64,000 bases of DNA. It comes from Patescibacteria group bacterium (lineage in GTDB: Bacteria; Omnitrophota; Gorgyraeia; Gygaellales; Profunditerraquicolaceae). Numbering within the stretch: the stretch's first letter is position 1; every line of letters begins with the position of its first letter. The DNA is taken from the NCBI GenBank assembly GCA_035506195.1, contig DATJPV010000041.1, positions 112 to 64,111 of the forward strand. Reading direction: 5' to 3'. The position numbers and the translations under genes are program-made. This document shows, piece by piece, positions 19,626 through 64,000 of this stretch. The notes beneath the pieces were generated by a model that had not been told where the DNA came from, made no database searches, and was given only the letters and a program-made list of their open reading frames with translations.

Positions 19626-19633
19626 ACGCACCT

Positions 19634-24414: not shown

Positions 24415-24468
24415 GGTACCGCTCAATTTCCTTGCGGGAAAGGGCCTTTTTAGCAAAGGAGCTTATCG

Positions 24469-25755: not shown

Positions 25756-25756
25756 C

Positions 25757-27211: not shown

Positions 27212-27279
27212 TGTGCTTTCTCCTTCCGCAGTGGCGGACACCAGCCTATCCGATAAGGCTGGGTGTAACAAATAACAAA

Positions 27280-28221: not shown

Positions 28222-28255
28222 GTCCGATTCCCTCTCCTTGTGTGCGCTGCTGTTG

Positions 28256-31972: not shown

Positions 31973-32827
31973 TTAATGCGCCAACTTCCTTACTGAATTA
32001 CGCGAAATGATCTGGGTATTGTTGAGCAGGACCTTGACCGGCTCCTTTTCTTTCTTATCGATGAGATTCTTGAGGTAGCGCACACCCAGCCTGCCGACTT
32101 CATACAACGGCTGCTTAACGGTAGTCAAGGAAATCAGGCTTGAAGAAGCCAGGGGTATATCGTCAAAACCGACCACGGACAATTCAGACGGCACACCGAT
32201 GCCGCGATGCTTGGCCTCTTCGATCAGGCCGATCGCCATTTCGTCGCCGGCCACAAAGACCGCGGTCGGAACGGGCTTTAACTTCAAGATCCTCTCCAGG
32301 CCCTTCTTGCCGGCATCCTTGGTCCAGTCGCCTTTAAGTATATATTCGTCGATAACGGGGATGCCGTTTTCCTGCAGGCCTTTCTGGTAACCCGCGAGCC
32401 GGTCGATCCCTGCCTGAGCGTGCAGTTTACCGGTGATGGTAGCGATATGCTTATGTCCGATCCTGACCAGATAGTCTATGATTTCGCGCGCAGCCGCTTC
32501 GTTGTCTACCCCAATGCAGTTATCTTCTGATTTCTTATCGAAATAATTCAAAATGATATACGGGATCTTCTTTTCCTTGGCCTTTTCTACCAGCTGTTCG
32601 TTGCCCATGATATCCGCAAACAGCAAGCCCGAGGCAAAAGAAGTGCTGAATATCTTCAGGTCCATATCGGTCTTCTCTCCTTCGGCCTGATGGGCAATGT
32701 GGATCAGGAGATCAACGCCGAGGCTCAGCGCCCCCTTGCTGGCGCCCTGGATGAGCTCCATAGTATAGAACGTCGAGAACATGTGGGGATAATGCGGCAG
32801 CACTAGTCCGAGGGTTACCTTTTTCAT
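31973..32827 (-). CDS. LacI-type periplasmic-binding-fold ligand-binding protein lacking the N-terminal HTH DNA-binding domain
   Basis: It begins directly at the LacI core (MKKVTLGLVLPHYPHMFSTFYTMELIQG...), with no HTH. Its ATG at 32825-32827 overlaps the TGA of the upstream gene (ATGA overlap). Confidence 0.65.
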   Translation of the reverse strand: MKKVTLGLVLPHYPHMFSTFYTMELIQGASKGALSLGVDLLIHIAHQAEGEKTDMDLKIFSTSFASGLLFADIMGNEQLVEKAKEKKIPYIILNYFDKKSEDNCIGVDNEAAAREIIDYLVRIGHKHIATITGKLHAQAGIDRLAGYQKGLQENGIPVIDEYILKGDWTKDAGKKGLERILKLKPVPTAVFVAGDEMAIGLIEEAKHRGIGVPSELSVVGFDDIPLASSSLISLTTVKQPLYEVGRLGVRYLKNLIDKKEKEPVKVLLNNTQIISRNSVRKLAH

Positions 32828-34010: not shown

Positions 34011-34373
34011 TCAGGCTCGCAGGGCCCGACCCACTCCCATAAAGTCAACTTTGTCGAAACAGACGCCGACCCGGTATTGCCCCATATCTTGAGGCTCAAT
34101 CCAAGCCACCCTACCCCGTTCATAGAGGGGTTCGTGGCCATCGGGAATCCTCAGCCAGATATCCAGAAACGCATCGGGCCTTAAGGGCTGGTCGACGATC
34201 AGGCTGACTCCTTTTGCGCTCATGTTGACGACTTGACCGACGACCTCTAGGCCTTCCTGAGGGGCCAAAACCCTCAAAGGAAACTGCGCTTGAAAGCGAC
34301 GGAATATCCGCCGGTCATCCATGGCCGGTTTTAAAAAATCCTTTACCAGATGGTCCCACCAGGGCTTATCCAC
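34011..34373 (-). CDS. Stand-alone PilZ domain protein (predicted c-di-GMP receptor)
   Basis: The canonical motifs RRIFRR (RxxxR) and NMSAKG (D/N-x-S-x-x-G) are present. It uses a GTG start and lies 53 nt downstream of the giant ORF stop. Confidence 0.8.
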   Translation of the reverse strand: MDKPWWDHLVKDFLKPAMDDRRIFRRFQAQFPLRVLAPQEGLEVVGQVVNMSAKGVSLIVDQPLRPDAFLDIWLRIPDGHEPLYERGRVAWIEPQDMGQYRVGVCFDKVDFMGVGRALRA

Positions 34374-43400: not shown

Positions 43401-46400
43401 AATTCTAGATAGGGGGTTAGGTCATGCGCGAAGGCGCGTGCGAATCTTTCTGCAAGATCTTTAGAAGAGAAGAATACCTCTAGCGCTCTGTGCGGAATGA
43501 GGCGAGCAACAATGAAGCCTACGGGAGGGCCCCGGGCAAGCTCTTTTGAAATGAAGAAAAACTTCGCGCGGATACCGTCGGTTTTGATAATCGCCCCATT
43601 GAAAACCGTAAGCTCGGCGAATGCGCCGTATTCGATGAGCGCTTTGACCTCCCCTTGATACGTAGGATAATAATCGCCCACCCAGGCATAAGGCGATGCA
43701 TGCTGCAGGGGAGAGCTGCTCATCGGCACGCCGCTATTATCGAGATGCCCCTGCGCGGCGTTTTTACGCGCCACCATGCGCCAGCCCAAAAGGACGGCAC
43801 TTTCCTCGTCATAAAATTCAGCCGGCGGGACTTCGAAGTCAAAACCGTGGCGCCAAAAAAGGTCTTCCCACTCAGCGGATGTTTCAAAAAGGCAGGGCAG
43901 ATTCACCAGTTGTATTGAAAGCCCTTTCTTGAAATTATATATCTCCGTGGCCCGTGCCCAGGAATCCAGGGCTTCGGCATTGCTATCCTGATATCCCGCC
44001 TCCGCCATGATCCTGTCGAGCGTATCCAGGATCAGGCTTCCCAGGCCAAATACATCTGTCTGGACATAATCAAGGACCTCCAAGAGACGGTCCTGCTTGA
44101 GGCGCGACGACATGTCCCGCAGATATTCCATGGCACGCTCGAAAATACCCGTCCTGTCAATCTGCTGGATCAGATAAACAAAGTGCCTGGAGCGTTCCAG
44201 GATCGCCGATTCCGGATGATGGGCAACCAGCGCCATCCTACCGTGCGTATGCAAGAGGCGCGCTAACGCTTCCAGCGACCGGTCTGCCCTTGTGTATTCA
44301 AGCGCATATTGCGAGGTAACCACCTCAAACTTTCCGTTACGTCCTTTTAACCGCCTGGCTTCTTCGATAGACCCGCGATGGACAACAATACCGTCTGAGC
44401 CCGGGATGCGCTCAGCCCGGATAGCGGCTTGATCGATGCCGTGTAAAACGAAACGGGAAGATGCCTCCTTGGCAAGCCGTAATAGCCACAGGTTTCCGCA
44501 CCCCACATCAAGGATAGCTGCTTCAGGCATTACGCAAGCCAAATTAAGGAAAAACTGCGTCCAATGCTGCCGGTAAGGAGCCAGCGTCTTGACATCGGTC
44601 ATTGCGGCAATGGCGGTGTCAAATCCCAGGTCCCAGAACATGTCCCAATCGCATCCTTCCGAAAGGCGACTATCGAATCCCTGAATCGAAGAGCTGGACT
44701 GACGTTGCGACCTTATTTCTACGGACCTATCAATTAAGACAGGCGTTCCCTTCCAGCCCGGCAACCGCGTTACTTTTTCAAATGGCTGGCCATCGAGATA
44801 AATCTCAGCTCCTTCTTTGAGTCGTTTCGGATTTGCCGCCTCCGAACCATCAAGGAATTCCTGACGCATATGGGGTTGTACGCGCAGATAACTGTCGATC
44901 TTACCGCCAAGGGTGGTGAAATATCGCTCGAGGCTGTAAAGCTCATTGCCGGTATAGCGTATATGCAGGCGTTTTGCCGTCCGAACTAATCCCAGCATAT
45001 TGGCAGATTGATCTGCGCACATCTGTTCAGTTAATGCCGGGTGTACACTGCGCACGTGCCAGCTGAAATTACTGTCCTCGCCCTGCACGTAGTAGACCAC
45101 GCCCGTAGGATCGAAAAGCATGCGCGGTATTTTTACATTGTCAAATTGACGGTCATGCCGATTAACGAAATGATTGGGAGAGGCCTGTCCTTGGAAGGAA
45201 TCAGCAAGGAGCGCGGCGCGGCCATCAGCCATCAAGGCGCTGCACGGATGCAGTTTTGCCTGAAGATCCCTCCTGAGTTGTGTAGGCAACGTATCCATAA
45301 TGCGTTGCATGGTTGTATTAAATTCATGATCGCCTTCTCCCAAGACAGGTCTACGGATGATTAAATCAATCTTCGTTCCGAAAGTCTTCAGGAACCAGGC
45401 GATATTTTTCACGTACGCCTCAGTGCCGATGCGGCGAGCCCACTTGCTTGCAGTAACCAAAGACAGCCTTACAGGATTGTAATCTTTGCCCATCAAAATC
45501 GGCGCGCCGGCCCAGAAGCGCGGGTCTTGGGCCATCTGGAGAGCCGCACGCGCAGAAGGAGTATGAAGTTCAACGCCCGCGGTAAATACCTGGAAATACC
45601 CTTCGAATAATGAGGCAACATCATAGAAATCCTTATCGTAAACAGGGTCGTAGTAATCCTTCAGCGGGTCGCTATCGAAATAGAGCCACAGGTATTGTAT
45701 CTGGCCGCTGCGGCGTAGTGTATTGACTACCCGGGCGATCTCAACTACCCACGGCCAGGGCATATACCGCACGAGTCCGGCCGCAGCAAGATGACAGATA
45801 TCGCAACGTATGGAACAGCCTTGCGTAACGTTAACCACAAGATGATATACATACTCATCCCTGAACAAGCTCGCTATACGCTTAAGATCGTCTATCCCCT
45901 CAAAATAAGGCCTGAACCAGTCATAGGGAGGATTCCTGAGAGTGCACAAGATTTGTCTTAATGAGGAAGAATCCATGTCGCGTCTTTCCAGCGCTGCCTT
46001 AAAAGCCTGTATATCTGCGGCCCCCTGCTTACTTAAGGGACAAGGGTATTGATCAAACAAAGCCAGATGCCGAGAAATCTCCTTGCGCCAAAAGCTGGCT
46101 GTAACCGGAGAGCTGGTCAACTGTGCAATGAGTTTCTCCGAGCGCCGGTATCCTACGCCGCTCCTATAGAGTTGGCGCAGAATGAGGTAGTACAGCTGCG
46201 GCACAAATGATGGGTGTTCGTTGGCTGCGGTTGCGATACGCTTGAAAAACGCCCGATAGGGATGAGGCGCATAAAACATCTCTGCCTGTTTGGCCTGATG
46301 ACGGCCTAAGGGATCAAAGTGCCACAACCTGCTTAATTGATCCATATCCTTCTGGCCGTTATGCTGCCGGATAAATTCCAATATGTCCAACGGTGCCAGT

Positions 46401-49400
46401 GCCTGGAATACCAACACCTCCCAGAAGAAGGGCCGGCCCGTTGAGAGGAGATTTAAATACAGAATGTTGGCAAGGTTATCCTGCCCGCTTATCACGGTCG
46501 GCAGATCATCGCAATAGAGGAATAACTCATTGAACAGCTTACGGGGAACGGAATAATCCAAAATAATGGTCACGTTATTATCCCGGCAGATGCGCCGGCA
46601 TTGCAGGTCTCCTTTGTCATTCGCATACTCGAAGAAGCTGTAGTCGTGCCCCCGGGAGAGATCCGAGACGGTTCGGTGTACTTCTGTATCGCGACGGCCG
46701 CACATAACAAAGAACGTGGACCTTTGTGTGCGAAAGTCAGGATGCAATGCCCGGGCCTGTTCAAATACGGCAAAGTAATCGCGCACGCTCTGGGCGGTAT
46801 GACAATAGAGAAACCCCCATTCCGAATCAACGACGTGCTGTATATCATTACCCTGATCCAAGAGCTCCCAACCGGGGAACTTTTTAATGATCCTGGCGCG
46901 TGCGACACGGATCTTTTCATCAACCCTGGGATATTTCTGAGAGTACAACTCTTGGCTGACCGGAGAAACAGGGGGCATCCCGATCTCCTCGTCCCCGAAA
47001 CCCAAATATGCTTCGCCGGCTGAGAGTGGATTAAGCGTAGGGCTTTTGAAGCCCAATTCGTAAATATGTACCTGCGCTTTTGCGTTGCCGCCATAAAGCC
47101 TCAGGGCCGTGCAATCAATGTCTTTTTCTTCGGCCCCCAACGCATACACAATTGAAACATCGTTCTGGCCAATGATCTCTTGCTGCGCGCGATACCATGC
47201 CCTGTTTTGCACATCGAACAACACCTCCTCGCTCTTTCCAAAACGTTCCTCGCTGTACAATGCGGTATTGATAACGCGTATACCCTCTGCGCTTTGCATT
47301 GCAGCCTGCGGATTGATACCCTTGAGGAGTTTTGTCTCGGAGACAAGTTGGATATCTTCCGGCGTATGGAAAATTAAGCGTATTTCTTTATCCGGAAATA
47401 AACGGCGCATTGCCTGAGCCGTATTAACGACAAATACAAAATCGCCCAACCCTGCCATCCGATGATGAAGGATAACATTTACCGCAGCAAAGTCATGCGG
47501 CTGCAGTAGCAGATGAGGATAATCTCTGCTTACGGCCCTGATCGCCTCGCTAAGATCCCATCCCATGCGTTTCGTAATGACACGCAGTATATTAGTGAGG
47601 CGGGCGGAATGAAACGGAATGGACAGCTCCAGCCCGTCAGCGCCGATATTCACACCATACGACCGGGAAGGGATAACGGATATCTTACGGAGGGCTGCGA
47701 CGTCTTTGTGGCGCAGGAGAATATTGACTGCGGTAAGGATTTCATAGTAAGGCAGGAGGCGCCGCGCGCCCTGTTCGATATTGCTGGCAAAATCAGCAGA
47801 TACGGGAATCTGGATTACCGGCATCTCCTCAAGCGGCGAGCTGGCGGCATCATCGAGCAGCTGGAGTTCTGCTTCCACTCCGAATTGCCGCTGGAGCTCG
47901 TCTTTGATCGCCTGGGGCGTTTTTCGTTTCGTTTCTGCAGAGACCCTGTACTCCTCATATTCCGTCATATCAATGACTTCTGCCGTATTTTCATCTACCC
48001 TATACCACACGATTCCCCTCCTCGATAGGATGAAATAACGCTGCCCGCAAGAAGACTGCAAATCGGTAAATGACGGTAAGAAATAGGAGAGGATGCCGTG
48101 CCGGTCAGGGTAATGCGTATGCCCGATAAAAACAAAACCGTTGTTAAATGTCTTGAAAGCCGTTTCTTCGTCCTCTATCCGAAGCTTGTATTCAAAAGGA
48201 GCGGACCTGCCTTGAGCGATCGAAATTTCTTTTGTGCACGAAAGCAGAATAGCATGTAAAGATACGCATTGAAAGATGTCAGCTTCAAGCTGAATGATAA
48301 TCTCTTTGCCTTTGTGCGCGTTATATACAAATTGTTTTAAGCGGGATTCGACAGTGGCATCCGCCGGCGAGCTGGCCCAGTCATAGCCAATTTGAGTAAT
48401 GCGAAGAGTTTTATATGGCTTCCATCCTACCGAGACAAAAGCATAGGTCCGCGGTGCCTGCAATGCATAGGTGTCATCACGATAGGTTTCCCACCCCCCC
48501 CATGTGGATAGTTTCTTGTGTTCCAATTCCAATACGTATCCGTTCTCATCGACGAGCACCGAGGCTTCCAGGCGCCTATCGTCAGAATCGCACTCAGTAA
48601 CAACCAAGACGTGGAAAGAAACAGAAGCGCTGACGAGGGCCACGTTAAAGCGCAATGTAACCGTTGAGGCATTAAAGCCGCGGAATGGCGCCAGCCTGAA
48701 TCCTCTGGGGGTTTTGTTGATATGCAATAAGTGCCGCGCGTGATCCCGCCTTACCATTTCCTTTATGTACTCCTCCGACGAACCTAAGTGTATCTGGCTG
48801 CCAGCGGTCTCGTCCGTGAATAGATGGAAAGGCGGAGACGCCAGGCGAGAACCCCCTTCTTCGGCGCGGCCATTCGACAACGGCGAGCTAGACTCTTGCG
48901 GCACAGCCCAGGCTATTGCTACCAATTCCGAAGGCACTGTTATAAAACCAAAAGCATTCAAGCCTCCGAAGCGCCCCGATATAACATCAGGCTGCTTAAA
49001 TCCGCCATGCTCAAAATAGTGCCTGACCAGATCAATGCGTTCCTGGAAAGAACTATCTTTCCAGATACGGGTTGTTTTGAGAAGATAGCTGTGCTCGCTG
49101 AAAACTACTACAAAGACGCCTTGCGGCTGAAGGAGCCGGTTGGCCTCCTTGAACACATCGAACGGGTACTTGAGGTATGCGATACCGGAGACCATCACGA
49201 CGGCACCAAAGCTATTGTCGTAGAAAGGTAAGTGCGGCGATACATTAACATCATGGACTATCCGACTGGTAAGCCGCGAGTTCGCGCGCATCTCTTCCTT
49301 GCTTACGCCCAGGCCGACTACCGCCGAGACTCGCGGCTTTCTAGGCACATACGAATGGTACCCCGACATTAAATCAAGGACGCGGCTGGCGGGAGGCACC

Positions 49401-52400
49401 AGCGAGCGTAGTTGCCTATAAACGAAACGGGCGGCATCCCTGGGCAAGTATCTCTGGATCCCTCCTCCCATCTCCCGCCAAAATTCCGTATCGGGTGCGG
49501 AATTCGGCGTATCAAAAGACCCCTGCGGGAATAAAAGCGGGTTCTGTGCCGAGATGTCGGATGCGCCTAACAGCCTGGACTGTTTGTACAATAACCGCAG
49601 GCCGGCCTCGACAATCCGCGTCGTGCGTTTACCTACGATAAGTACGGTTTTATCGTCGGTTATTAAATCCAACAGCAGGCTGTCGTTATCGGAATCTTTT
49701 TCGGTCATCAGAATGGCCGGCAAGCCACGGTCGATCCTGCGGGCTTCCTCGATCAGTTTTATCCCGCATACCCCCCCGGGCATAATGAGGTCCGTTATTA
49801 AAAGCGCGATTTCATTATTCTTAATAATCTCGAGGCCTTCATGGGATGCCTGCGCATGGTACATACATTTAAACCCTAGATCGCTAAAAGCCCGATGCAA
49901 TGCTTCGTGATACCATGGCCGGTCATCGACGATGAGGATGCCCGCATTCTGAATAGCTTCATCTGCTATCGGCGAGCTGCCGACAAAGGTGCCCAAGAGA
50001 TTAAGCATCCTCGTATATCTGTGGCGGCCAAGCGTACCCCAGTCAATGCTCGGCTGGTATCCGGCGTGAAGCAGGCAGCGACCGAAAGGCGTTTCCGGAA
50101 GCACTGTTTCCAGTTCGCGTTGGAACGTCTCGTAACGGCCGAAACCTGCATGAGCGGCCATAGCCCTGAAAGGAACTGTCTGAAATTGCCGGTACCTCCC
50201 GCTGTAGGCAGCCAGATCATCCCACCGGGGAGAATCCAACATATCCGCTAAACGTTCGTTAATGGTCCGTATGGTCACGGGGTTTTGTACGTCTTTCATG
50301 CGCAGCTGCACCGCATCTTTGGCTACCCGGGAAACGATTTTAAGAAGGCAGGTGAATATCCCCATGCCGGTGAGGTTGACAGGAAATGCCCTATCGATAT
50401 AGATGCTGTTTACATATACCGAATCCCAGGAAAGCATGATCCGGCCGCTGCGAGAAAACAGCCAGCTGGCCGCAATGGGCGCCTGGCTTATTCTTTGCAA
50501 GAGGCAACCGCGATCAGGTTCAAGGTTGATGGTAAACGACTTTCCGGAAGGCTGGATTTTCGAATACATATCCACGCCTGCCTGCCTTACTCTAAAAGTA
50601 TGCGCATCGATGGATACGCGATGCTCGCATACCTTAAGTTCAATAAGATCATCCGAAAGATGCGTGATGCCGATCGGCCAGTTACCCCCTGCGGAATCAT
50701 AGTCAGCGTTGATGGTGCCTGTCCGGATATTGATCCTATGGATTCGTCCGTTAACCATGAACGGCAACAGATCGTCTCCGTTTTTGTGTCCAACCGCCAT
50801 AAAGATATCTTGTCCGGGGCGCAGCCATGTCATCACGTGCTGATGGCCGAGTGCATTTTCTACGTCCATGGCTATCGTCAGCATCCTGTCTTGCCGGGAT
50901 TGCTGAACCGGCGAGCTGACAACGGCATCCCCGGCGGACGGCGCATGCGCGTCTACATAACCAAGGAACGCCTCAAAATCCTTCCAGATCGTCAAGCGCA
51001 CCGTTGCGCAAGTGACGGAATTACGTGCCAACAGGCTCATGCGCGTGCTATCTTCGTCCAGAGAAATAATCTCACCCGTACTTTCCAGCAATCTGGTGCG
51101 GTAAATATCCGCAACCGCAGGAGAGAACCGGGCTAACGACTGGATTGAATAAACCGGGCCCCCTAGCGGGATATGCAACTCATAATTGTTTTGATAGCGG
51201 TTCATCTCCTTGAGCAGGCGTTCTACCTGCCTGCGCAAACAGCCGAGGAAATAGCCGCCGACCAGGATAAATATCCTCTCCGGATAATTGATGATCTGAT
51301 GGTCCACAAAGTTACCGTATACATGCCCGCGATGAACCAGATAAGAATCCAGGAATACTACTTCATGAATGCGGGAGACCGCAGGAGCAGTCATCAATCT
51401 TTCGATGGAAGGCTTAGCGTGTATGCTGGGCCCGAATATTTCGCTGGCGTGGACGACCAGTAAAGCAAAACCCTTATTCGGGGCAAGCGACGAACTGGCA
51501 AATGGCGATGCGTCTGATGTTGCTGCGTATGAGGAGCCATACCAGGCTGCCCCGATGGTCGTAATGATCCAGCGGTTGTTTAATGGCCGCAGCGTCCTGC
51601 CGCTTATTTTCTGTAGCATTACAGACCCAAGCCAGCCCTGGTGCGTATTGACGAACGCATTGAGAATAAATTGGCTGTGCATTGCCGGAGAATAGTCAAG
51701 GCGCGACCTTTTGCTATATGCGGAACGGGCGAAATGTACCGCAACCGGCAGAAGACCTTTCTGCCTATACGCATTAACAATGCCCTGCATCTTGGCGAGC
51801 ATGGCCGAACGAGTAGGATCGGGGCTGCCTTCTCCCGAGAAGTAATCCGCACAATAAGTCAATACCGTGTTCGGCCGACTTGGCTGAACAGACGAAGCAT
51901 CCTGCGTTACCGAATCGATGGTATTGCCGGTTTCCGGGAATGGCTTTAGCGGCAAACACACCCAAATTATCTCTCCCGCAAGACGACGCTGCAGTTTAAT
52001 GACGCGCCCCCAATTCTTGATAAGCAGCGGTTCTTGCCCTTCCGGAGCGAGTTCATAGCGTTCGTCATCCGGATGGAAATCATGCGTAACGATAGTCACA
52101 TCCTGACCAGGCAATCCCAGCTTGGCTACAAAATCGACAACTTCGTCATGATCGACGGACTCCAGGGCAGCAATGACGCGACCAGCATTGGTGATATAGC
52201 CGGCAATAGTAATATACGAAACATCCTCGCGGATTGTGTGCTTATCTGCGCCGGGGACCTGTTCTACCAAATCAAAACCACTGAAGAGCCAGTTCTTGCC
52301 ATTTTCCTCGATCCATATATAGGGGATCCCGTCTTGAAATCTAAAGTGGAAAATCCGACCGCCGGTGAGCTCAACGATATGGTTGCCGACTTTCTTCGCA

Positions 52401-55400
52401 GGGTTCCTCCAGGCGATCGTCACCCTTGAAAGCTGAGCCAGCGGGTCGTATTCGAAATCGATACGCGTAATGGCTGCCTTCTTGCCAATGAAAGCGATCT
52501 GCCGCACAACCTGTTCGTTATCGCGCGCCTCCCCTGCCTTGCCCTCTTCTCTTATCTGCATCAGCTCATGCGTTGTTTTTCCGGTCACCTGCATGCCTTC
52601 TGCCGGCGAACTGGACTGGCCTTCTTTTTTCTTCGTGAGCAATCCGATGGTCAGGGCTATTGTTGCCGCCCCCAAGAACAAAGGAAGGACCCAGGAATGA
52701 CTATCCTGCTGCACCATCCTCCTATCCCGGCTTGGCATTTGGCCTCTAAGGTGATAACGATTGTCGCCAAGATAAGATGCTTTCGGATTAAATAAGCTGC
52801 TTCTTCTCCATGCCCGTGCCGCAAATGCATTGGCAGTGGTGCTTTCAATGCGCCAGCCGGCAAATTGGCCAAACTCCGGATGTGTTGCCATCCAGTAGTA
52901 TAGAAGAGGCATGACCCGCTTGTGTTGGTACGCTTCTTCTACAAGGGCAACGTCTCTTAAGAGCTTGCGCTGCTGTTGATCGACGGCTAAAGAAAACCCG
53001 CCGACTATTTCTCCGTCATAATCACGCAGGAGCTCAATCCAATACCCGATGATTCGATCATCGTAGCCTTTGACTGCCCGATCGCGCGGCCAGACCCCCC
53101 TGATTGCTAAGACCTGGCTTACGATGTCATGAATCGCATCGTTCGGTAAACGAACAAGCTTACGTAACCCCTGGTCGATTACCTGCTTCTGTGCACTAGA
53201 TAGCTGCATAATCAACTCTACAGGCTCAATCACCGCCGGTGAGCTGGAAGCCTCATTGTCCAGTGCTTCCTGCTGGATCCGGATTGCTTGATACGCAAGC
53301 TCTAATTCTGAAACAGGCCGTTCGCGCAATCCGGCTTCATGGCGCAGCCTGTCGCGTATGGCCTGGTTATCGCGGAACAGCCTTCCTAACCATGCTCCGT
53401 GCAGGCGCTGGCTTTGAACGTCGGCACCGATAAAGAGCTGTTGTGCGGTTACGCGCAACTTAGGGGCATGCACGTACTCCTGAGCCTGTAAAGCCTCCCG
53501 GGAAATACGCCTCAATACAGAGCTATGGTTTTTTAAATTGATATCCCATATATGCCACTCATCTTCAGCCGTCCTGAACATAACATCGATATCAGAATCA
53601 AGGGTAAGAAAACCGTTAAAACTGCCTATCAGCCAGATCTGTCCGGCATGCAAGATCTGCCTTATTCTTTCTCCGGGCCCGACTTCCCCGAGGCGCATCA
53701 ATGCCGATTCAATTTGACCTTGGCGCAGCGTTGGTGTCTCTAATACTTTGAATATCTTCCTGAGTAGGCGCCGGTCAATAAAAGGAGTCGCGAAATAGTT
53801 TTCCAGGGATAGCTGTAATGCATGTTGCCAGTAGGGCGTTTCCGGGCCCGTCATGTGCATCAAAGCCGCAATCTCTTTGGCAACAGCTGCGGGGGTAACG
53901 ATCCCGGCCTTACGCTGATTGTCAATCCATACCGCCAGTTCAAAAAGATCCCTTTCTCCTTCTTTGATGGCCATCTGTAACATGCGCGCGGATTCCTGCG
54001 CCGGAGAGCTAGCCTGGCGACGCCGGTCCTTTGTTGCGGATCGGACGGACATATAAAACGCTTCGTGCCTGGCAGCAAGGAGCTCATACGTATATTGCCC
54101 CATAATGAACCTTCTGCCCTTTTGGCCCATCCGGATCCTCAATTCCCTATTCGCGCAGAGTTCCTCAATGCGCGCCGCAAAACCATTGATATCGCCTGCC
54201 TTGACAAGGAACCCGGTCTCGCCCGGTATCATTGCGGCCGCGATGCCGCCCGCATCAAAAGCAACCACCGGCTTTTCCATCGCCTGCGCTTCCAGGAGCG
54301 CCCTGCCCAGGCCTTCGCTCGTACTGCATAGCACCGATACATCGGAAGCGGCAATGTAGTCTCTAATCTCTTGCTGCGAAAGCCCGCCGGTAAAAATAAC
54401 GTTGTCGTCCAAGCGGCATTCCTTGACAAAAACGACTACCCTTTCCTTAAACACCGGGTCGTAATCGTTACCCGCAAAAATAACCTGTACCGGCCTGCTA
54501 CGGTCTCTGAGGATACGCGCTATCTTAAGCAGGTCAAGGTGGTTTTTCTCGGGGCTGATACGCCCTGACAAAAGCACTACCGGTGTATCGAAATGTACGC
54601 CGGCATCCCGGGCTTTTTTAGGATCAAAGAACTCCGGATCGATGCCATTCCCGAGGTTCACAAACCGCCGACGCAGGTACCACGGCACACTCTTTTCGGA
54701 AATACCGCTGATGCCCGCCGCCCAATGCACGAGCATACGAGTGGCGATATCCCTTAATAATATGTTCCCGCCGTGATTCTCCAGAAGGACTGGAATGCCC
54801 CGCGCATAACTTTGGCGCATCAGGAGCGCTGCCTCCGGAAAGGCGATCGAATGCACCATGACCAGGTCAATACGGTGTTGTGCGAATATTTCGTTTAACC
54901 GAAGCTTGAAGGTGGCGATATCCAGATTAATGATGCCGCGGCTATAGAACCTTCTGATAAGAGGCAGGCGCTGCATCAAGCCCATGAATCTGGTGGTGAC
55001 GAGCCAGTAGCGAATGAGTCCTTTGACGCCTAACTGCTCGAAGAATCTATTGAGTATACTGAAGAAGTGGTTTTCCGCGCATTTTGTGCATTGCGCGATG
55101 CTATTGTCGTGCAAAAGGACCGGCACGCGGATCAAGGTGCCCTTACCGATCTGCTCGCTTCTCACAAAAGCGCCTGCCGCATCCGTGGTAAGATATAACT
55201 GAATAATGGTTACTCGGTTCCGCCTCAACAAGGCGGCGTTGAGCCCCTGTAAATGCTGTTGCAGGCCGCCAAGGTTATCGTAGGAATAAGAAAACCGCAG
55301 GATCGTCAGACCATCTAGGCGGCCTTCTGCCGGAGAGCTGCTCTGTGCGCGGCTCGCAAAGGCTGCATGTATCGCCTCCGTAAACCGGCGTCCCATCTCT

Positions 55401-58400
55401 TCGATACCGATACCGTCGGGGCTGATAACGATATCCGCCGGATGCGCAGGGTAATCGTTTCTTTCCAGGGGTGTGGCGAGCAGTTGGCGGGCTATGTCGA
55501 CGGCTATGCCGCTGGCTATCGCGCGTTCAAAACGGCTTTTATAGCTACTGTTGAAACGCACGAGTAATTCAGGCTGGCCTTTCTCCTGATCAGCATACTC
55601 AAACAGCTTAGTAACGCATTCAATGAATAGCACATGCGCTTCCGGCGCCTCGTTGTGTGCCCATTCAGCAAGAGACCTTGTGTCCACGCGCATAGAACGT
55701 AACCCGTGATCCTGCAGCGCCTTACTCGCCAGATTAATGAGCATTGTCTTGGCTGTTGCGGTCGGCCCAATAAAGACGATATGCGCCGGCCGGCCGAGTT
55801 GGCGCTGCTCATTGGCAGTAGCTATGCGCACGATCATGGAGGCGAGTTTCTCTATGCCGCTTTCCTGTACGGGCGAGCTGGTTTTACCGCGCTGCCACCC
55901 CGAGAAGGGAGAACGGACCAGGCGGGGGAAACGCGCTATAACCAGACGGCTGCCGAGCTTCGTATCTGGCTGTTGGGTTTCGGAATTATCTATCTTGAGG
56001 GGAGCATATATCTCATCGGCGATTTGGCGCACCCGATCGTTGACGCTATCGGTCACCAGGATCCCGGCATTCTTCAGCGCCTCGATATAGAATCCGATGA
56101 ACCTAGCCCTCACCAGATGGAGATACTCAAATAACACAACCTGAACCATTGTCTTTTTTGAGCCGGAGTCAGAAAGCAAAGATACCGCCTCCTGAAGCAT
56201 GGCGATGCGCGCTTCCCGCAGATAATTGCTCGCCTGCATATGGAATGCGTGACGGGAAAAATCCTTTCCGTCAAAACGATCTGCCTTCGCAAGTGCCTCC
56301 AGATTAAGTTCATCCAGAGACATGCATATGTTTTGGAATTGCGATGCCAAAACAGGAACAAGCACAAAGGCGCGTTCGAAAGCACGGCGAGCCGGCCTTC
56401 TTAAGAGCGCCTCTATTGCCTTTGCGGGTTGAGGATAGGTATATCGCGTATCCGCGTCAGCGCGCTGATGAGCAACAGCAGGACGAATACCTTGCCGGCG
56501 AAAACTTATTTCTTCGAGTTCATGGAATACGAGCGGATCAAGATGGCGGCGGAGCGCGGATGAGAATTCTTCCTGGAAGCTTTCAACGAGGGTCTTTGAA
56601 GAGAAGTATAACGATAGGGTGCCGTTTGTTTTCCGAGCCCAGATGAATGTTGGCGGAGCGCGTGCGGTATTCTGCGTAAGATAAAAGAATCCGACCTTGA
56701 CATCGCCAAAACTTGGAACCGCCCGGTTGAAGGCAGGGACGGCTTCATAACAACCCTTGGCAATGAGTTGTTTTATCTCCTTGATATCCTGTCGGTTCAG
56801 GTTCCCGAGATAGCCATGCCCTTGAGAAACGGGGCTGGCAGCCCTCATGGGGCCTACTCCGTCCCGCGAAGGCTGCTTGACCCGGACCACAAAACGCTCA
56901 ATTAATCTATCGCTCAATAAACGCATGGGATCATTTGAAATATACGAAGGCAACGCAAAATCTCCGCCGCCATCTTGATCAATCGGAGATCTGCCTAATG
57001 CGTCTTGACGCCTTTCGAAAAAACGCGGCAAGCCGTAATGGGTCGGGACAAACTCTGCCGGGTGGAGATAGACATGTGCATCCTTAAACTTTGAGCACAC
57101 GTTACCGTAACTGCCTACGATACCGAAGTGCGTCATCTTCCCGGAAGCATCAAAATACACCACAAGAGAACCTGGCTGTGCTTTTTCTTGCGAGACAACC
57201 TGGAATGACATTGATAATATATCAAGCAGTTGCTGGTAGCCCAATCCGTTGAGCTCAGGGAAGAATTGTTTCACGTACCCCAGACAATCCATGCATGAGG
57301 GCAGGTCCTTGGTATCTTCAATAAGCATTATTCCCGGCAACACCGCAATGCTGTCGAAATCATGCTGTTCCAAGAGCCAATCGATGCATTCACGGATCTC
57401 TTCAACCGTATCGAATAGCGGAGAGCTTGTCCCCGGAAGGCGGCGTACGGTATAGATAAGCGTACCTTTGTTAATATCGTCGGCCTGTTCGCTGAAATTT
57501 CCTACGGCAGTATAACTCAGGCGCTTGCCTAACGAAGAAATATGGAAAATGCCACGGTCATTGTACACAGCCGCATTACGCGAATACGGCAATCCTATTC
57601 CTCCCCAGAAACGTGCGATTCCTTTCCTTGTTGAATATCCTTTGGTCATTGCCTTGCGCAGATCCTTAATACCCTTGCCTAGATCGCGCACCAATATCTC
57701 AAGGAACCCTGCATCGGCAGAAAGCACCACCGCGCCGGGCGCACCGGCATGCACTACGATATTAGTAGCAAGTTCATCAACTATAAAACGGATCGACTCG
57801 TCACCAGAAACAAGCTCATCCTCCCTGTCGTTTACGATTGATTCCTGCGCAAAGCCCAACGATGCGGCAAATGCCTTGATGTGCCGTCCGTATACGCTTT
57901 CCGGGGCAAATTCGTATTGATCGCTGCCTACCGGCAAAAGCAGGAATCCGCCGGAGGCAAACGGCGTGAATCCCTCCCTGCCTGTACGCGCAAGCAACGA
58001 ATCCACCTTCCTGACCACGTGCCCTTCTAGCTCGGGATACTCTGGAAGCGGAGAGCTGGAATACTGTTGAGACGCATTAAACAGCAAAACAATATTCTCT
58101 CCTTCTTTGAATTTTGTGACTCGCAGGCTAAACCGCGTATCCGGCGGATATGCCTGTCCGATACTTTCAACGAGGAAATCCTGCATAAGTGCAGTGGATT
58201 CCCCACGGCCAAGCGCGGTATCCAAAATGACCTCATATTTCATGTCTGGGCCGGGTTTATCCGCCAGTTCATACGGACGCAAGGGAACGTCGTATTGGAG
58301 GCGTGTAAGGTTGCCCCGGCGGATCAACCCTTCGATCCATACATAGAGTTCCTGGAAAGACAAACCGGTGATATCGAAATACCTATCGCCCCTGGCCGGG

Positions 58401-61400
58401 GAACTTGCGCCGTTCAAGGCTGCAATTGCCTGATACGTCGCGCCTCCAACACGGTATGCGGCCACAACGGTTTTAGATCCATGCTCGCTGAATTCTTTGG
58501 CATCGTTTTTAGCGGCAGCCGGATACTTTATGGAACTATACCCACCCAGGATTGCCGGGAATGCCCCTGAAAGAACGTGTTTTCTGAGCGTATCATGAAC
58601 CGGATAATACGGGCCAACATTCGCCAGCCTGATTGACGGCTCGGATATCCAGCGTTGGCGAATATGGGCAAACGCCGGATCGCACCATGCATGCAAGTCA
58701 CAATGCAGAAGGGAAAATCTATTCTCAGCCGGCACGGGAGGATACAGCCATTCGCTTCTTTGAAGAACTTCGCCCGGGCCATATCCTGCCTCGCGCAAGA
58801 CTTGCGCTGCGGCATAGAGAAGTTCGTCCTTACCGTCAATGCCAATGAGCCGCTTGATCCCCAGCCGGAATGCCACGAGCGCCAAGTCTCCTCTACCTGT
58901 GCCGTATTCCTCCGCGGTCATGCGGTACAGATCCTGTTGGCGCATTAAGGCTATAATCGGAACAAGGTATTCCAGGAACATAAGCGGCGCTTTCACGACA
59001 AGCCCCTGAGCCTGAGCCACCAGCCCCCAAGGCATGCTTTGGCGCAAAAGGTCAGCCAGGATGATAACATCATCTACCCTCAGGTACATATTGTTGGCTC
59101 CCGCAACTACTGCCAGATGCTTCTGTGGCGCATCAATCTCTACGGTATCTTGCCTTAAGGACGCAAAAAGTACCTTGCGGATATAATGTTCCAGCTGTTC
59201 TATGGCCCCCTCGGCAGGTTCCTCAACCGGCGAACTGGAAAATCGCGAACCTGGCCGCGGGCCGCCCGAATCCCTGAGTTTACCGGGGGTCAAGACGCGC
59301 ACTATTGTCTCCTGTAATCCTGCGATATACTCAATAGAAGTTGCAGGCCCTAATCCAATCCCTATTACTATATATTCGGCCAAGAGGCGGATAAGCTCAA
59401 TGACATCCGTATCGGGATTTGAAAGCATATCGGAATCAGTGACAAACACATCGAATATCATTACCGGCCCTTTATCGGAAAGGATGATATTCCGGGGGTT
59501 ATAGTCTAGACCGCGCAGATCCTCTATGCGTTCGTATAGGAAGGCGCATACATCATAAATAGTCGTCACGCTTCGTAATAGAGTGGGAATAAGGGCACTT
59601 TGATTAATGAGGGCGCGCCCTTCGGTATACTGCGCCGCCATGTCTCTGATGTATTGATACAGATTCCTGCCTTCGACAAACTTCCATATGAGAATAAGGT
59701 TTCCGATCCTGTCCTGCGTATAAAATCCCTCTACCACGCCCGGCGTTCTGGGCGTAAGCCCGTTAACCGCATCGACAACCTTCTTTATCGCATCGATGTC
59801 TCTGACGTCAGGGCGCCGGGCCATCTCTTGGGTTATTATCTTTATAGCTACCACGTCTGAAGGCTGATTGACTGCGTGCGCTTTCCAGGTATTGGCTGCA
59901 AGTTTTTCATCAAGTATGTAGGTAGCTCCCTCTGGCAGATAGCGCCTCTGTTTAGGCAGGATAACTTTCTGGCCGGGCTTGAAAGCCGGGAAGAGAGAAA
60001 ATGCAGTAAACGATGCGAGGGCTTCGGTGAGGTCCTGGAACACTTTTTCCGGATTCTGCTGGCCGTTTATTTTTATGGTAACCGCTTTGTAATAATCGAA
60101 TACCGCCTGTTCATATTCGCGATATTGCCGGATACGCGTGCGTATCGTGTCAGCATCGTCATCCCCCCTTCCTTCCCTGGGGTGGCCGACGAGCCTGCGC
60201 ATCGACTCCTTGTCGCTGATGTGCAGTTCGATAGCACAATCAATATAAATACCCTGTTCTGTCATATAACGGGCCGATGAGACGGTAGGCGGGTATCTAT
60301 CGAGGATAAACCCTGTCTGCATATCCTTTCGGCTGAGGTAAACCTGCATTATCTTGTCCATAATATCGTCGGGCACAAGCCTGCCGTCCAAGACGCGTTC
60401 TTGAATCACCGCTAGCTCCTCGCCGGTTAAATGGTAGGCTTGCGCTTTAGCGGGGTCGTGCAGGATATCGCGCAGGACCTGCCCCGCAGAAATGTGCGGT
60501 ATGCCTAACAACCGCGCCAGCCTGTCTGCCTGCGTATGTTTTCCGCTCCCCGGCTTACCTTTTATTACGATCCTTCTGGGCATATCTGCGGTGTCTATGG
60601 CTGAGCTGGCATCGAGTTCCGGATATCGCACGAAATATGCGTCTTCCTCCGGGCCGAAGGGAACGAATCCCAATCCCGCATAGAATTCTTCCAGCGCTTG
60701 TTGCCCTTGCGGGTGGCGCCCGAAATAAACAAGATGCGCGAGGATTGTTTCGGTAGCGCCATAGGTCCTTACAAATCTTTCTACGAGAAAATGGCCGTAG
60801 CCTTTTCCTTTGGAAAGGCGGTCTGTTTCAACAAAATCGATGAACTTGAAATCACCCAGATCTTGGCGCCTATCCGAATAACTTAATAACAGGCTGACCG
60901 CGGAATCATTTTCTGCTATATAGTAAAGTTCGTACGAGCGATGGTAACCGCGCAGAGAATAGTCGCCAAAGACCCGGTCTTTGCCGTTCTTCCACTTGTT
61001 TAATAACGATAGCATCTCCTGACGATCGCGGACGACGTGCACGATGGGCACGCTGGTGCTTTCCGCAAGCTGCACTTCAATATCTTCAAGTTCTTCCCAT
61101 AAAGTCGTTGCATGTGCGGATAAAGACAGGGCTTGTGCCTGCCTGCTGAATAATCCTCGGTTAGGCCGCTTATGCCTGGTAGATTGCGTAAGGTCTTGGA
61201 AAATTTCCTTCATTTCGCGGACAAGCTGCGCCTGCCGATCAAGGTTTGCATCCAGCCAAGCCCCGATCACCTGTTGCCTCTTCAGTAGGTACTGCAAAAC
61301 AGAATCCGATTTTACCGGCGAACTGACGGCTGGCAATCGGGTGGAGATTCTATCGATAGGAGCCTTACTTTCCTCGATATCAACTCTAAATTGTGTAAAT

Positions 61401-64000
61401 CCACCCATCGAATGCCAAGTGCCATAGTGCTCGGATATGTATTTATTGCCTGACGTTATCTGCGCGTATTCTTCAATCGCAAGTGTTTTATTAGGATCGA
61501 AATTAGTCCCAAGCAATAATGAATAATCCATATCGATCGTAGTCGGATATATGAGTATGCGCCCACCCGAAGTTGAAACCCGCATTAGTTCTTTGAACGC
61601 CCTCTTCACGAGTTGCTTCCCAGAGATGCCTCCGGGAATACCGAACAACCAAGTCACGATAGTGTAATCAAAACTATTATCTGCATACGGAAGCCCCTCA
61701 TTGAGATCGGCAACCTGAGCGGTTATATCACCGGGATAAGGAATGGGGGAGGCGTCAAGCCGAACATATCGTTGCAATGTCTTAGCCATCCGGTGAAGAA
61801 GCTGTACCCAAGGATCCCCCATCTCCAACACATATCGCAACCATTTCTTCCCGCCGTAGAGTAATTGCGCCTTCAACCAGGCCACAGTAGCTGGATTAAT
61901 ATCTACTATGCTAATGCTGGGTGGCGGGTTCATTAACTTAAAAGGCTCTTGCTGCATCAAAGAGTATTGTAAGCTTTGTGCGGCAGGAATAATCAGTAGG
62001 CGGCGGCTCGCATAAAGAGGCTCACTGACTGGCAGGGATTTCTCATATTCTCGCCAATTAGTAAAAACTGGCCTTAGGGTATTTTCCCCAAATGCGGCAT
62101 AATCAAGTAGATTATTTTGCGATACATCAAGGGAAATGATCTCTTTTTCTTCGGGTGTCAAAAGATTTTTCACCGGCGAGCTAACAGAGGGAACGGTATC
62201 TTGAATATGCTGCAAAAATGCCTTAAGCCCCCGATGGCTGGCCTCTTCCTCTAGTGCCGCCAACGGATTGATTACTTCATACATGCCTGTGCCGCGGCTG
62301 GCCACCCACTCCTGCTGAATATCCATCCGCTTGGCCCAGGCGGGCATTAGCTCCAGCGCATTCATTAACCGCAAACCGGGAAAACCGAATACGGGGGTTA
62401 CCCTGTCATTGCGCATGCCTAAACCTTCGTGGGGCTCAAGCATATAGCGTGTCCCGATCCTGGCCGCAAGGGGGATGATATTACGGCTGACCAAATACGC
62501 AGCAATCAGCACCTTGATCCCGTTGGTATTCTCAGTTGCCGTGCGGTGCGAGAAGGGGTTACTTAAAAGAATGGTTCTGGCGATGTCATTCGCATATGAT
62601 ACATTACGCTGAAAGACATAATCGGCCTTTTTGCCGCGCATGACATTGCCGACCACGGTGCGCATCCGGGATATATCAAAGAAATTAACGTAATCCGCCG
62701 TCATCAATAACCCATCACCATTAAGGTGGCGAGAATCCGATGCCGGGACGTATACGGCGTGCAAGGCGTTGCCGCACGCAAAATACTTATTATTGGCAAC
62801 GTCCACAACATGCGGGTTTCCATCAAAACCATAAAAGCGGACCTTCCAGTCCTGCCACGGCTCACTCAGTTCGATAAGGACTTTGTAAAAACTCTGCACC
62901 ACCATGATTGCTTCCAGAGGATTCTCGCCTAACCCGAATCCCGCAAAGACCATCGTGCGATTCCCATGGCCTGGCTCATTTCTTGCGCGGATGATTCTCT
63001 TAAAATCTGCCTCCATAAGCTGCCTCTGGAACCTATCTTCGCAGTCATCGGTGAAATTAAGATCAGCGGTGTAATCCGCATGCCGGTCTACAATATAATT
63101 CACCAGGCGGAATAAGTCCTCGCCGGTAAATCCGATAGTTTGTAACTCGGGCAACAAGGGGACGATTGCTTCCAAGACGCCCTTCCTTAATTGCTCCAGC
63201 TCCGCCTCCATCGGCGAGCTGGCGCGCCCGTACGATTCGTCTTCCAGGGGCAGATAACTGACTTCTGCGCCTAACTTTGCTATGAGAATTTTTATCTTTT
63301 CATCTTGGAATACGTGCGATAGCATGATTTTTATGTGCGGATTGGCAACGACAAAAATTACCCTTGCGAAATGAAGGACTTCTTTGAGCTCGATATAGCG
63401 CTCCAATTTAGCGCTTATCTCCTTCAATATTTTCTGCTTAACCTCAACGCCGAACCAACTTTTAGTTTCGACGATACACAGGCGGCCCTGCGTATCTGCA
63501 ACTAGGGCATCGAATTGCGTCGCTTCGCTACCGGCCGATATGACCCTATAACCTAGATGCTGCAGGAATTCCAGTGCCCTAAATTCGTTCCATAAACAAA
63601 ACAGGTCGCTGAACGCCCCCTTAGGATGAACCCGGGCAAGCACGTTAGCCGGCAACTCGACTCCCAATCTTTGCATCTTTAGCCATGAAGGGACGATTTT
63701 TTCCAGGAACCTTGCTTCCATAAATGCAGCCCACTGCTGCTCTATCCTCGCGAAGTCTTTTGGAGGGATATCCTCCAATGATCTTCCTGTCTGAAGGCAT
63801 CTGTCTGCGTATTCGAATACCGGCCTGATTATATCGAACCCGGCTTCCCCGAGACCCTTAAGAAGATTGTAATGAATATACATGGAATTCCTGCCTGCGT
63901 GAATCAATGCAAAACCCATCGTAAAGACATCATTGGCTTCTCTCAAAAGAACGACTAATCTGCGCTGTTGTAGGGTGGGCCTACCGGAAGAAAAGAGCAC
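34427..64000 (-). CDS. Giant multi-enzyme modular protein (at least 9,857 aa; the N-terminus lies beyond window position 64000) of about 30 unrelated catalytic or regulatory modules joined by Ser-Ser-Pro junctions
   Basis: The minus-strand frame is uninterrupted for the whole 29.6 kb. In 55% GC DNA a stop would be expected about every 20-25 codons. Recognisable enzyme motifs occur throughout (see sub-features). The stop codon TAA is read at about 34428-34430 by my count, whereas the track gives 34427. Confidence 0.85.
   Translation of the reverse strand: [9857 protein letters not shown]
36471..37214 (-). other. Giant-ORF module: class I SAM methyltransferase
   Basis: It has [15 protein letters not shown] (motif I) and VVGVDVG. 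Confidence 0.5.
37227..38215 (-). other. Giant-ORF module: HD-domain phosphohydrolase resembling the (p)ppGpp hydrolase domain of RelA/SpoT
   Basis: [12 protein letters not shown] (the His of HD motif I) and [12 protein letters not shown] (HD motif) are present at about 37745-37780. The spacing matches the SpoT HD domain. Confidence 0.55.
40874..41323 (-). other. Giant-ORF module: stand-alone response-regulator receiver (REC) domain
   Basis: It has [18 protein letters not shown]...[15 protein letters not shown]...IPVILITAS. Confidence 0.6.
43727..46105 (-). other. Giant-ORF module: radical SAM domain followed by a class I SAM methyltransferase
   Basis: The CX3CX2C motif is [16 protein letters not shown], encoded at about 45790-45815. 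The downstream methyltransferase has [13 protein letters not shown] (motif I) and [11 protein letters not shown]. Confidence 0.65.
46115..47833 (-). other. Giant-ORF module: GT9-like (heptosyltransferase-type GT-B) glycosyltransferase
   Basis: [38 protein letters not shown] resembles the WaaC/WaaF N-terminal motif (irlsalGD...P...lr..fP.a.i). Confidence 0.45.
47843..48364 (-). other. Giant-ORF module: metallophosphoesterase-like
   Basis: It has [10 protein letters not shown], with a GHxH-like motif V. Support is weak. Confidence 0.35.
48890..49969 (-). other. Giant-ORF module: response-regulator receiver (REC) domain followed by a class I SAM methyltransferase
   Basis: The REC part is [25 protein letters not shown]...[21 protein letters not shown]...AILMTEK. 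The methyltransferase part is [12 protein letters not shown] and [14 protein letters not shown]. Confidence 0.6.
53246..54001 (-). other. Giant-ORF module: Pol-beta-like nucleotidyltransferase
   Basis: It has [21 protein letters not shown] (G-S ... D-x-D). Confidence 0.45.
54011..55329 (-). other. Giant-ORF module: GT4 (GT-B fold, retaining) glycosyltransferase
   Basis: [13 protein letters not shown] is present, and the EX7E region is [24 protein letters not shown]. Confidence 0.7.
55342..55870 (-). other. Giant-ORF module: P-loop NTPase
   Basis: Walker A is [13 protein letters not shown]. A hhhhE-like Walker B is HVLFIEC. Confidence 0.45.
57428..58048 (-). other. Giant-ORF module: GHKL/HATPase_c-type ATPase (anti-sigma-factor / histidine-kinase-like)
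   Basis: It has an N-box-like segment [14 protein letters not shown], a G1 segment [11 protein letters not shown] and a G2 segment RFWGGIGL. Confidence 0.45.
59237..61316 (-). other. Giant-ORF module: GNAT acetyltransferase, adenylate kinase and protein-kinase-like domains in one junction-bounded segment
   Basis: The GNAT motif A is [17 protein letters not shown]. The adenylate kinase motifs are [35 protein letters not shown] (about 60541-60600). The kinase-like motifs are VAIKII (about 59830-59860), DYNPRNIIL and MIFDVFV. Confidence 0.6.
61326..62174 (-). other. Giant-ORF module: class I SAM-dependent methyltransferase (Methyltransf_11-like)
   Basis: The motif I-like region is [11 protein letters not shown]. 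The post-II motif is [14 protein letters not shown] (LPF-D-SFD). Confidence 0.5.

Follow-up and report, generated by a model that had tools for sequence, protein, structure and literature searches.

A hydrophobic, possibly leader-like helix beside a recurring SSP junction in a giant modular open reading frame of an Omnitrophota bacterium

We analysed a stretch of 64,000 nucleotides from contig DATJPV010000041.1 (positions 112 to 64,111 of the forward strand; assembly GCA_035506195.1), assigned to the Omnitrophota and referred to here as the window. Our subject is the hydrophobic helix WVLPLFLGAATIALTIGLLT (amino acids (aa) 3770-3789; 52634..52693, minus strand), encoded within a giant open reading frame (ORF) that is built of protein-sized modules separated by recurring Ser-Ser-Pro (SSP) junctions. 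The helix lies between a module with a GNAT-like domain and a junction that opens an arginase-like module. In our judgement there is about an even chance that it is a leader- or signal-anchor-like element of the unit formed by this junction and the arginase-like module downstream, and that it does not belong to the GNAT-like module.

Results

The helix and its position in the giant ORF

The giant ORF spans at least 9,857 codons (34427..64000, minus strand). Its stop codon is at 34427 and the frame runs past the window edge at 64000. The N-terminus lies outside the window; aa numbers are counted from the window edge and all statistics refer to the visible ORF, which is made up of 33 modules and 32 SSP junctions. 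Pfam domains along its length comprise adenylate kinase, GHKL ATPase, GT4 glycosyltransferase and GNAT upstream of the helix, and two receiver domains, several S-adenosylmethionine (SAM) methyltransferases and a helix-turn-helix (HTH) domain, HTH_17, downstream of it.

Translation confirms the coordinates and flanks that an earlier note on this DNA had given for the helix. The order is ..GQMPSRDRRMVQQDSHS, WVLPLFLGAATIALTIGLLT, the basic spacer KKKEGQ (aa 3790-3795; 52616..52633, minus strand), the junction SSSP (aa 3796-3799; 52604..52615, minus strand; codons TCC AGT TCG CCG), and then AEGMQ. The motif DSHS (aa 3766-3769; 52694..52705, minus strand) adjoins the helix on its N-terminal side, and RDRR is found 9-12 residues upstream of it. 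The pattern D[GS][HYT][SA], which was defined post hoc, matches DSHS alone in the 9,857 aa.

Hydrophobicity was judged by two hydropathy scales, those of Kyte and Doolittle and the biological scale of Hessa. No other stretch of the visible ORF is as hydrophobic as the helix, which has a Kyte-Doolittle 19-residue mean of 2.09 and a summed Hessa dG over 19 residues of +0.25 kcal/mol, a value that is borderline for membrane insertion. The runner-up stretches have Hessa dG values of 3.08 and 4.29, followed by values of 4.5 or more, and the earlier description of this segment as the sole strongly hydrophobic helix holds for the visible ORF. An equal or more hydrophobic 19-mer occurs in 46% of 200 composition-preserving shuffles of the 9,857 aa, and the hydrophobicity of the helix alone is within chance for so long and Leu-rich a chain.

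The standout feature of the helix is not its hydrophobicity but its placement next to a junction. The second most hydrophobic segment, VSFIATVVMATALCM (aa 9630-9644; 35069..35113, minus strand), begins right after the junction SSP 9627-9629, and the third, TLLYAFSMVGCPMTELLLF (aa 9147-9165; 36506..36562, minus strand), is followed by ERKGEAKKKESRIGA and then by the junction SSP 9181. The top three segments thus lie 8, 0 and 15 aa from SSP junctions. Among random windows, 12.6% fall within 8 aa and 17.1% within 15 aa of a junction, and the probability for all three is p ~0.005, a post hoc value. The check proposed earlier, whether hydrophobic helices are consistently placed next to junctions, therefore gives a positive answer for the top three segments of the giant ORF, and for relatives as well (see below).

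The charges flanking the helix are balanced, with a net charge of +1 and three Lys or Arg residues on each side. Judged from these residues, the orientation of the helix in a membrane would not be fixed, and the KKK that follows its 20-residue hydrophobic region would be out of keeping with a classical signal peptide and with a translocated tail alike. When the 46-aa segment containing the helix was scanned against NCBIfam at E values up to 10, only a chance match was obtained (MgtU, E 0.13). A curated C-terminal sorting signal (LPXTG, PEP-CTERM, GlyGly-CTERM and others) was rejected on this basis, and the segment is not C-terminal.

SSP junctions between protein-sized modules

The tripeptide SSP occurs 32 times in the visible ORF, compared with 1.9 occurrences expected (Poisson p ~4e-28). 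The protein consensus at the junctions is [S/A]-S-S-P-[V/A/L], with acidic residues after it, and the corresponding DNA consensus is (G/T)CC AGY TCG CCG G. The first Ser is encoded by AGY at 31 of the 32 junctions, against 35% of the Ser codons elsewhere in the ORF. TCN encodes the second Ser in 31 of 32 cases (TCG in 20), and CCG encodes the Pro in 29 of 32. The preceding codon has C as its third base at 26 of the 32 junctions; the residues found there are S, A, V, T, G and D, mostly one step away from GCC or TCC.

Because these codons are near-fixed although the modules that they join are unrelated, the pattern points to a shared DNA origin or to a constraint at the level of the nucleic acid, such as recombination, beyond selection on the protein. 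A recoded genetic code, in which a sense codon would act as a stop at the junctions, was ruled out, as AGY, TCN and CCG are all common within modules.

The sizes and boundaries of the modules match those of whole proteins, and each Pfam match lies inside one junction-delimited module. Both receiver domains begin 9-10 aa past a junction, the GT4 module has a length of 443 aa, and free-standing homologues of modules exist.

The upstream GNAT-like module

Relatives of the region around the helix were collected with an exhaustive HMMER search using aa 3334-4533, which returned 31 proteins (E down to 1.8e-48); BLASTP places them on modules M10, M11 and M12 of the giant ORF. Alignment-based scans of genomes and metagenomes yielded six loci, L001-L006, from an Omnitrophota metagenome-assembled genome (MAG), a Planctomycetia MAG, two Elusimicrobia MAGs and two metagenome contigs. 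When one 1,031-aa sequence served as the query of a genome scan, no relatives were obtained. A word-indexed protein search with the helix-bearing module and with alignment A1 from library proteins gave no matches, and the database searched appears to be without the family. An exact search for the product of a neighbouring gene likewise returned no entry.

The core of the module upstream of the helix ('M11-type'; aa 3589-3758; 52727..53236, minus strand) is a GNAT-fold acetyltransferase-like domain with 13 related copies in library proteins. In an AlphaFold2 (AF2) model that covers aa 3589-3850 and draws on 15 relatives, the predicted local distance difference test score (pLDDT) exceeds 90 for aa 3589-3758, and the Foldseek matches in the PDB are GNAT acetyltransferases. 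The pLDDT falls below 50 for aa 3762-3814, which include the helix and the junction, and the helix would therefore be part of neither neighbouring domain according to the model. It appears there as a low-confidence helix spanning aa 3777-3791, unpacked on the GNAT-like domain, and a role as a buried part of the GNAT-like fold was ruled out.

In an alignment of 16 copies, the GNAT-like domain ends at G-x-F-P-x-W (GQMPSRD in the window), and only the window sequence has a hydrophobic continuation past this end. Within 120 aa downstream of the domain, none of the 13 other copies has a hydrophobic 17-mer with dG below 5 (minimum dG17 of 5.8-15, versus 0.26 here). The string MPSRDRRM was considered as an ancestral start codon with an n-region and rejected, given that GQMPSRD aligns with the conserved G-x-F-P-x-W.

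The proposal of the earlier note that the helix is the tail anchor of this upstream module is not supported by these copies: none of the 13 has such a tail, whereas 8 of 14 relatives of the downstream domain have a leader. The helix is probably not a conserved property of the GNAT-like module, and a tail-anchored GNAT-like product would then be a mere by-product of a cut at SSSP.

The downstream arginase-like module and its proposed leader

The module that follows SSSP comprises aa 3800-4364 (50909..52603, minus strand). On the evidence of AF2, Foldseek and HMMER, its core ('M12-type'; aa 3828-4138; 51587..52519, minus strand) combines a beta-sandwich with an arginase/ureohydrolase-like domain. 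The core has a mean pLDDT of 88.6. Its Foldseek matches, weak overall, are led by the peptide arginase OspR (TM-score 0.45) and include agmatinase and arginases. Among the invariant residues are D123, H124, D147, H149, D151 and D225, which form DHDE, HxD and DxDYF-type motifs. HMMER matches to this domain type are P0001-P0010, with E values from 1e-48 to 1e-23.

In 8 of 14 relatives a hydrophobic segment ends 49-88 aa upstream of the anchor of the M12-type domain, and in the window this distance is 62 aa. The spacing is 69 aa in P0002, 65 in P0008, 60 in L006, 50 in P0007, 49 in L004, 86 in P0003, 87 in P0004 and 88 in P0005. Values of dG17 of 1.5-2.5 are reached by just 8-11% of background windows of 130 aa. 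Where a junction word can be recognised, it is that of the lineage and stands between the leader and the domain: AGLEE in P0002/L001, P0005/L002 and P0008, SSP in P0003 (..RWLWSHALEQVPK-SSP-AKPP.., aa 295) and GAS followed by acidic residues in L006. The arrangement of helix, junction word and M12-type domain is thus conserved in order and similar in spacing. More broadly, the succession of hydrophobic leader, junction word and module is seen in the window (aa 3770-3799) as well as in P0002, P0005, P0008, P0003, P0015 and L006. The BLASTP and HMMER alignments to P0008 extend back across the junction into the helix.

In free-standing M12-type relatives, the upstream hydrophobic segment is an N-terminal Sec-type signal peptide. 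Such signal peptides are found in 12 of the 19 relatives that start with Met, and these proteins accordingly look exported. Their n-region is positively charged, the core is hydrophobic and the residues at positions -3 and -1 are small; A-x-A-like sites for signal peptidase fall, for example, between AIA and LRQE and between AYA and LRPT.

Relatives share the modular build and differ in junction word

Several relatives are modular giants too and have an over-represented word of their own, and the word varies by lineage (SSP, AGLEE or x-A-M-[LM]). P0018 contains SSP 9 times, versus 0.74 expected, in the context [A/G]-SSP-[L/V/A/I] as in the window, and P0022 contains AML 9 times, versus 0.8 expected. 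AGLEE is the junction word of P0002, P0005, P0008 and P0015. P0002 (L001:9157-11412) is built in the order signal peptide, AAGLEE, arginase-like module, AAGLEE, second module, AAGLEA and an 18-aa tail. In P0003, SSP stands five residues past the last helix of a membrane domain, and SSSP stands 15 aa before the C-terminus. A role as a passive linker would not be expected for a word that flanks modules even at the ends of chains.

AGLEE is encoded as ..TGGAGGA.., which resembles a Shine-Dalgarno sequence, in four of five cases (loci including L002:1685-3094). An internal Shine-Dalgarno site was considered and judged incidental, the genomes being GC-rich and no in-frame start codon following.

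Locus L006:2-20911 (+), on the 306-kb metagenome contig Ga0209726_10000023, is taken up over its full 20.9 kb by a single open frame of at least 6,970 aa. Of the 15 hydrophobic segments in this frame, seven or eight directly follow x-A-M-[FL]..D-G-[HYT]-S and end in G-A-S and acidic residues, a cassette that recurs ahead of modules. One of these segments lies 39 aa ahead of VVRSIEF in the M12-type domain of L006, and in the window the helix lies 41 aa ahead of VVRQIAF. The motifs in L006 are DGHS (twice), DGYS and DGTA; three of them adjoin a helix, and DGTA lies 6 residues upstream of one. L006 also carries a superfamily-1 helicase-like module (AAA_11/AAA_12).

In relatives of the giant ORF, the domains at the N- and C-terminus are conserved, and the array of modules between them varies. 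An N-terminal domain (..VNLSPYExDRIxP..TEMGRDLLAQDYxLKQ..) is shared by P0011, P0017, P0022 and P0028, and P0011, P0017, P0022, P0028 and P0025 have in common a C-terminal domain, roughly 70 aa long, that opens with GGIDF/L. These domains may be the export or delivery parts of the modular proteins. Neither they nor the GNAT-like and arginase-like modules have models in Pfam or NCBIfam. Multi-helix membrane regions occur in P0003, P0030 and P0031. By its homologous modules, its over-represented junction word and the hydrophobic segment placed before a junction and a module, the giant ORF belongs to a family of modular junction-word proteins that includes P0018, P0003, P0002, P0022, L006 and others. 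Literature searches on the junction words, and on bacterial polyproteins in these phyla, returned no description of such a system.

Genes around the giant ORF and paralogous modules

The giant ORF has a GC content of 52%, as does the rest of the window, and its chromosomal neighbours are ordinary: MnmG, ribonucleotide reductase and a cluster for the utilisation of mannan or mannooligosaccharides (14229..28263, minus strand). The cluster encodes two GH113 proteins (one with an F5/8 type C domain), GH130, GH94, a sugar transporter of the MFS type and LacI-type regulators. A 936-aa phosphoglucomutase-like ORF at 21508..24318 has a long unannotated C-terminal half. A PilZ-HTH-ROK protein is encoded at 11613..13055.

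Directly downstream of the giant gene lies a small ORF (34012..34373, minus strand) that reads by eye as PilZ-like, and beyond it an ORF of 379 aa (32824..33963, minus strand) with glycine motifs that by eye are ASKHA/ROK-like; neither has a Pfam match at E 0.1.

Within the giant ORF, BLASTP detected only two pairs of paralogous modules, the other modules being mostly unrelated. One pair is formed by aa 2195-2710 (55871..57421) and aa 6765-6943 (43172..43708), and the other by aa 6979-7142 (42575..43066) and aa 8035-8495 (38516..39898), all on the minus strand (E = 6e-14 and 4e-16, respectively).

Discussion

Proposed origin of the helix

The giant ORF can be read as a string of protein-sized modules in which a short, conserved word forms each link, here [A/S]-S-S-P-[V/A/L]. 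Polypeptides of relatives start with a hydrophobic leader, the junction word of the lineage and the first module, and once such a leader-junction-module unit stands inside a longer chain, its leader turns into a mid-chain helix. The most likely history would be that a separately encoded exported arginase-like gene, comprising leader, junction and domain, became fused in frame behind the GNAT-like module. Today the helix may still bring the chain to the membrane at this point, or it may be a decaying relic, the fossil of a gene start. If the junctions are processing sites, a cut at SSSP would free the arginase-like module; as a by-product, the GNAT-like module would then end in the helix and a KKKEGQ(SSS) tail. 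Peptides spanning KKKEGQSSSPAEGMQ would speak against such cleavage.

Several observations weigh against assigning the helix to the arginase-like unit. Six of the 14 M12-type relatives (P0001, P0006, P0009, P0010, P0017 and P0018) have no upstream hydrophobic segment. The helix has no A-x-A-like site for signal peptidase I after it, where KKKEGQSSSP is found instead, and this KKK gives a charge bias opposite to that of a normal signal peptide. None of the sorting-signal models in NCBIfam matches the helix segment. The leaders of L006 are bordered by acidic or neutral residues at either end and none is a textbook Sec signal, and the correspondence between DSHS in the window and DGHS in L006 involves a motif defined post hoc. 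The window leader does not resemble those of L006 significantly in sequence (Smith-Waterman alignment compared with shuffles, p ~0.15), so the case for a leader is positional and architectural, not sequence-based, and a claim of sequence-level homology to the L006 leaders was dropped. Also dropped was the use of a common orientation of the L006 leaders as proof of cleavage, their flanks being nearly without positive charge and their orientation unreadable. Finally, with 46% of shuffles matching the helix, it may be a hydrophobic linker devoid of function.

Alternative explanations

This last explanation, in which the helix is neutral sequence or an eroded relic between folded modules and has no present function, seems unlikely to us. 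It draws on the shuffles and on the borderline dG of ~+0.25 kcal/mol, and it is also consistent with the low AF2 confidence, the lack of a homologous helix after the GNAT-like domain elsewhere and the non-significant leader alignment to L006. It is opposed by the tendency of natural soluble proteins to avoid unbroken apolar runs of 20 residues between clusters of charges. Chance would also leave unexplained that the position relative to the junction and the M12-type domain recurs in relatives, and that the top three hydrophobic segments all adjoin junctions.

The earlier picture, of a polyprotein cut at SSP in which the helix and KKKEGQ are a purpose-built C-terminal tail anchor that fixes the GNAT-like product to the membrane, stood up in its geometry. 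The linker is disordered and unpacked, the helix ends 6 residues before SSSP, and aa 9147-9165 likewise form a hydrophobic stretch followed by KKK and a junction. Junction words that flank modules even at chain ends, as in P0002 and P0003, behave as processing sites would, and the lineage-specific words (SSP, AGLEE, xAM[LM]) are in line with this. The picture did not stand up with regard to ownership, as the hydrophobic tail is absent from the 13 other GNAT-like copies and it is the downstream domain that the helix accompanies. Charge is a further difficulty. In bacteria, the positive-inside rule disfavours the translocation of a basic tail such as KKK, and in an N-in/C-out topology this tail would have to cross the membrane. 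A protease is also missing from the sequences searched: among the 9,857 visible residues, searches of Pfam, NCBIfam and PDB sequences gave no significant peptidase domain (only NlpC/P60, E 0.078, below its cut-off), and none was found in the two downstream ORFs. The idea of an adjacent protease gene was dropped, these ORFs being PilZ-like and ASKHA/ROK-like. Taken together, we regard a purpose-built tail anchor as quite improbable.

More doubtful still, in our view, is a single uncleaved, membrane-associated megaprotein in which the helix is a true internal span or a monotopic anchor. The 15 hydrophobic segments of L006 could thread a polytopic chain, P0003, P0030 and P0031 have multi-helix membrane regions, and a preprint on giant Omnitrophota genes reports numerous transmembrane regions in all of the full-length ones (10.1101/2023.11.21.568195). 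Such an arrangement is difficult to accommodate in the window, where the visible ORF has only one strongly hydrophobic segment. Because domains that depend on ATP, SAM, acetyl-CoA or a phosphorelay, and hence on cytoplasmic cofactors, lie on both sides of the helix, an uncleaved single span is hard to reconcile with the chain and would strand thousands of residues on the wrong side; the earlier remark that a lone mid-chain transmembrane helix is hard to rationalise in an uncleaved chain is well founded in this respect. The distribution of these domains argues for processing, for a non-spanning helix, or for action in another cell.

Beyond the assignment of the helix to the arginase-like unit, which we favour, a broader proposal can be made. 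The giant ORF may represent an undescribed class of bacterial giant polyproteins, in which lineage-specific junction words (SSP in the window, AGLEE or x-A-M-L in relatives from Omnitrophota, Planctomycetia and Elusimicrobia) are read by a cognate protease, leader helices directly ahead of a junction determine the products kept at the membrane and the junction codons mark the in-frame exchange of cassettes by recombination. We offer this as a speculative possibility, on balance not the likely one.

By itself the helix is a modest feature, useful as a marker of the build of modular giant proteins whose family is apparently undescribed. Should the junction words be processing sites, it would be the first concrete handle on the sorting of the megaprotein into products that are membrane-bound and products that are free. 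As a counterpart, in mid-chain, of the leaders with which free-standing homologues begin, it would be the visible scar of an in-frame fusion and would bear on the growth of giant genes. Without cleavage, the helix would be a minor curiosity within an otherwise unusual gene.

Comparison with known systems

The helix has features of a Sec signal peptide or type II signal anchor. It is an apolar helix of about 20 residues before a domain of an exported type, RDRR, which may correspond to a positive n-region, precedes it, and free-standing homologues of both neighbouring modules begin with textbook signal peptides. It differs from them in lying inside the chain, 3,769 residues or more from its beginning, in having KKK after it and no A-x-A, and in preceding a family-specific junction word, not a signal-peptidase site. 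A cut at SSSP would make the GNAT-like module end in a single helix and a short polar tail, as tail-anchored proteins do. Their helix lies within ~30-50 residues of the C-terminus, whereas that of the window is 6,068 residues from the stop codon; moreover, the upstream family elsewhere is without the helix, and the charge of the tail misfits N-in/C-out insertion in bacteria.

Viral polyproteins share with the giant ORF the arrangement of protein-sized modules in one frame, split by a short recurring site. The giant ORF differs from them in lying on a cellular chromosome with ordinary neighbours, and no protease was identified in the visible ORF or the two downstream ORFs. MARTX multi-effector toxins are very large proteins that carry an array of unrelated enzyme modules separated by processing (PMC6315884, PMC2900308). 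The giant ORF likewise encodes an array of enzyme modules, and relatives of the window protein have conserved termini around variable modules. Unlike in MARTX toxins, neither a cysteine protease domain nor RTX-type repeats were found in the visible ORF, a single fixed tripeptide, written in fixed codon families, serves as the junction word, and the modules are housekeeping-type enzymes and regulators.

Giant genes of Omnitrophota are described, in the preprint cited above, as encoding many divergent enzyme-like domains and transmembrane segments; post-translational cleavage is suspected there, and information on cleavage points is stated to be absent (10.1101/2023.11.21.568195). A term search of that text found no description of a repeated junction word (10.1101/2023.11.21.568195). 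The window ORF is similarly giant with many divergent enzyme-like domains, and relatives of its modules occur in MAGs of Omnitrophota, Elusimicrobia and Planctomycetia. It differs in that it has one strong helix and in that no SecA-like, C39 or S8 domains were found in it.

Judged by their defining features, the helix in the encoded chain is not that of a tail-anchored protein and not a curated C-terminal sorting signal, and the visible ORF is not that of a MARTX toxin. By analogy, the helix would work most like an internal signal-anchor, and the protein as a whole appears to resemble most closely the MARTX-type multi-effector toxins and the giant genes of Omnitrophota.

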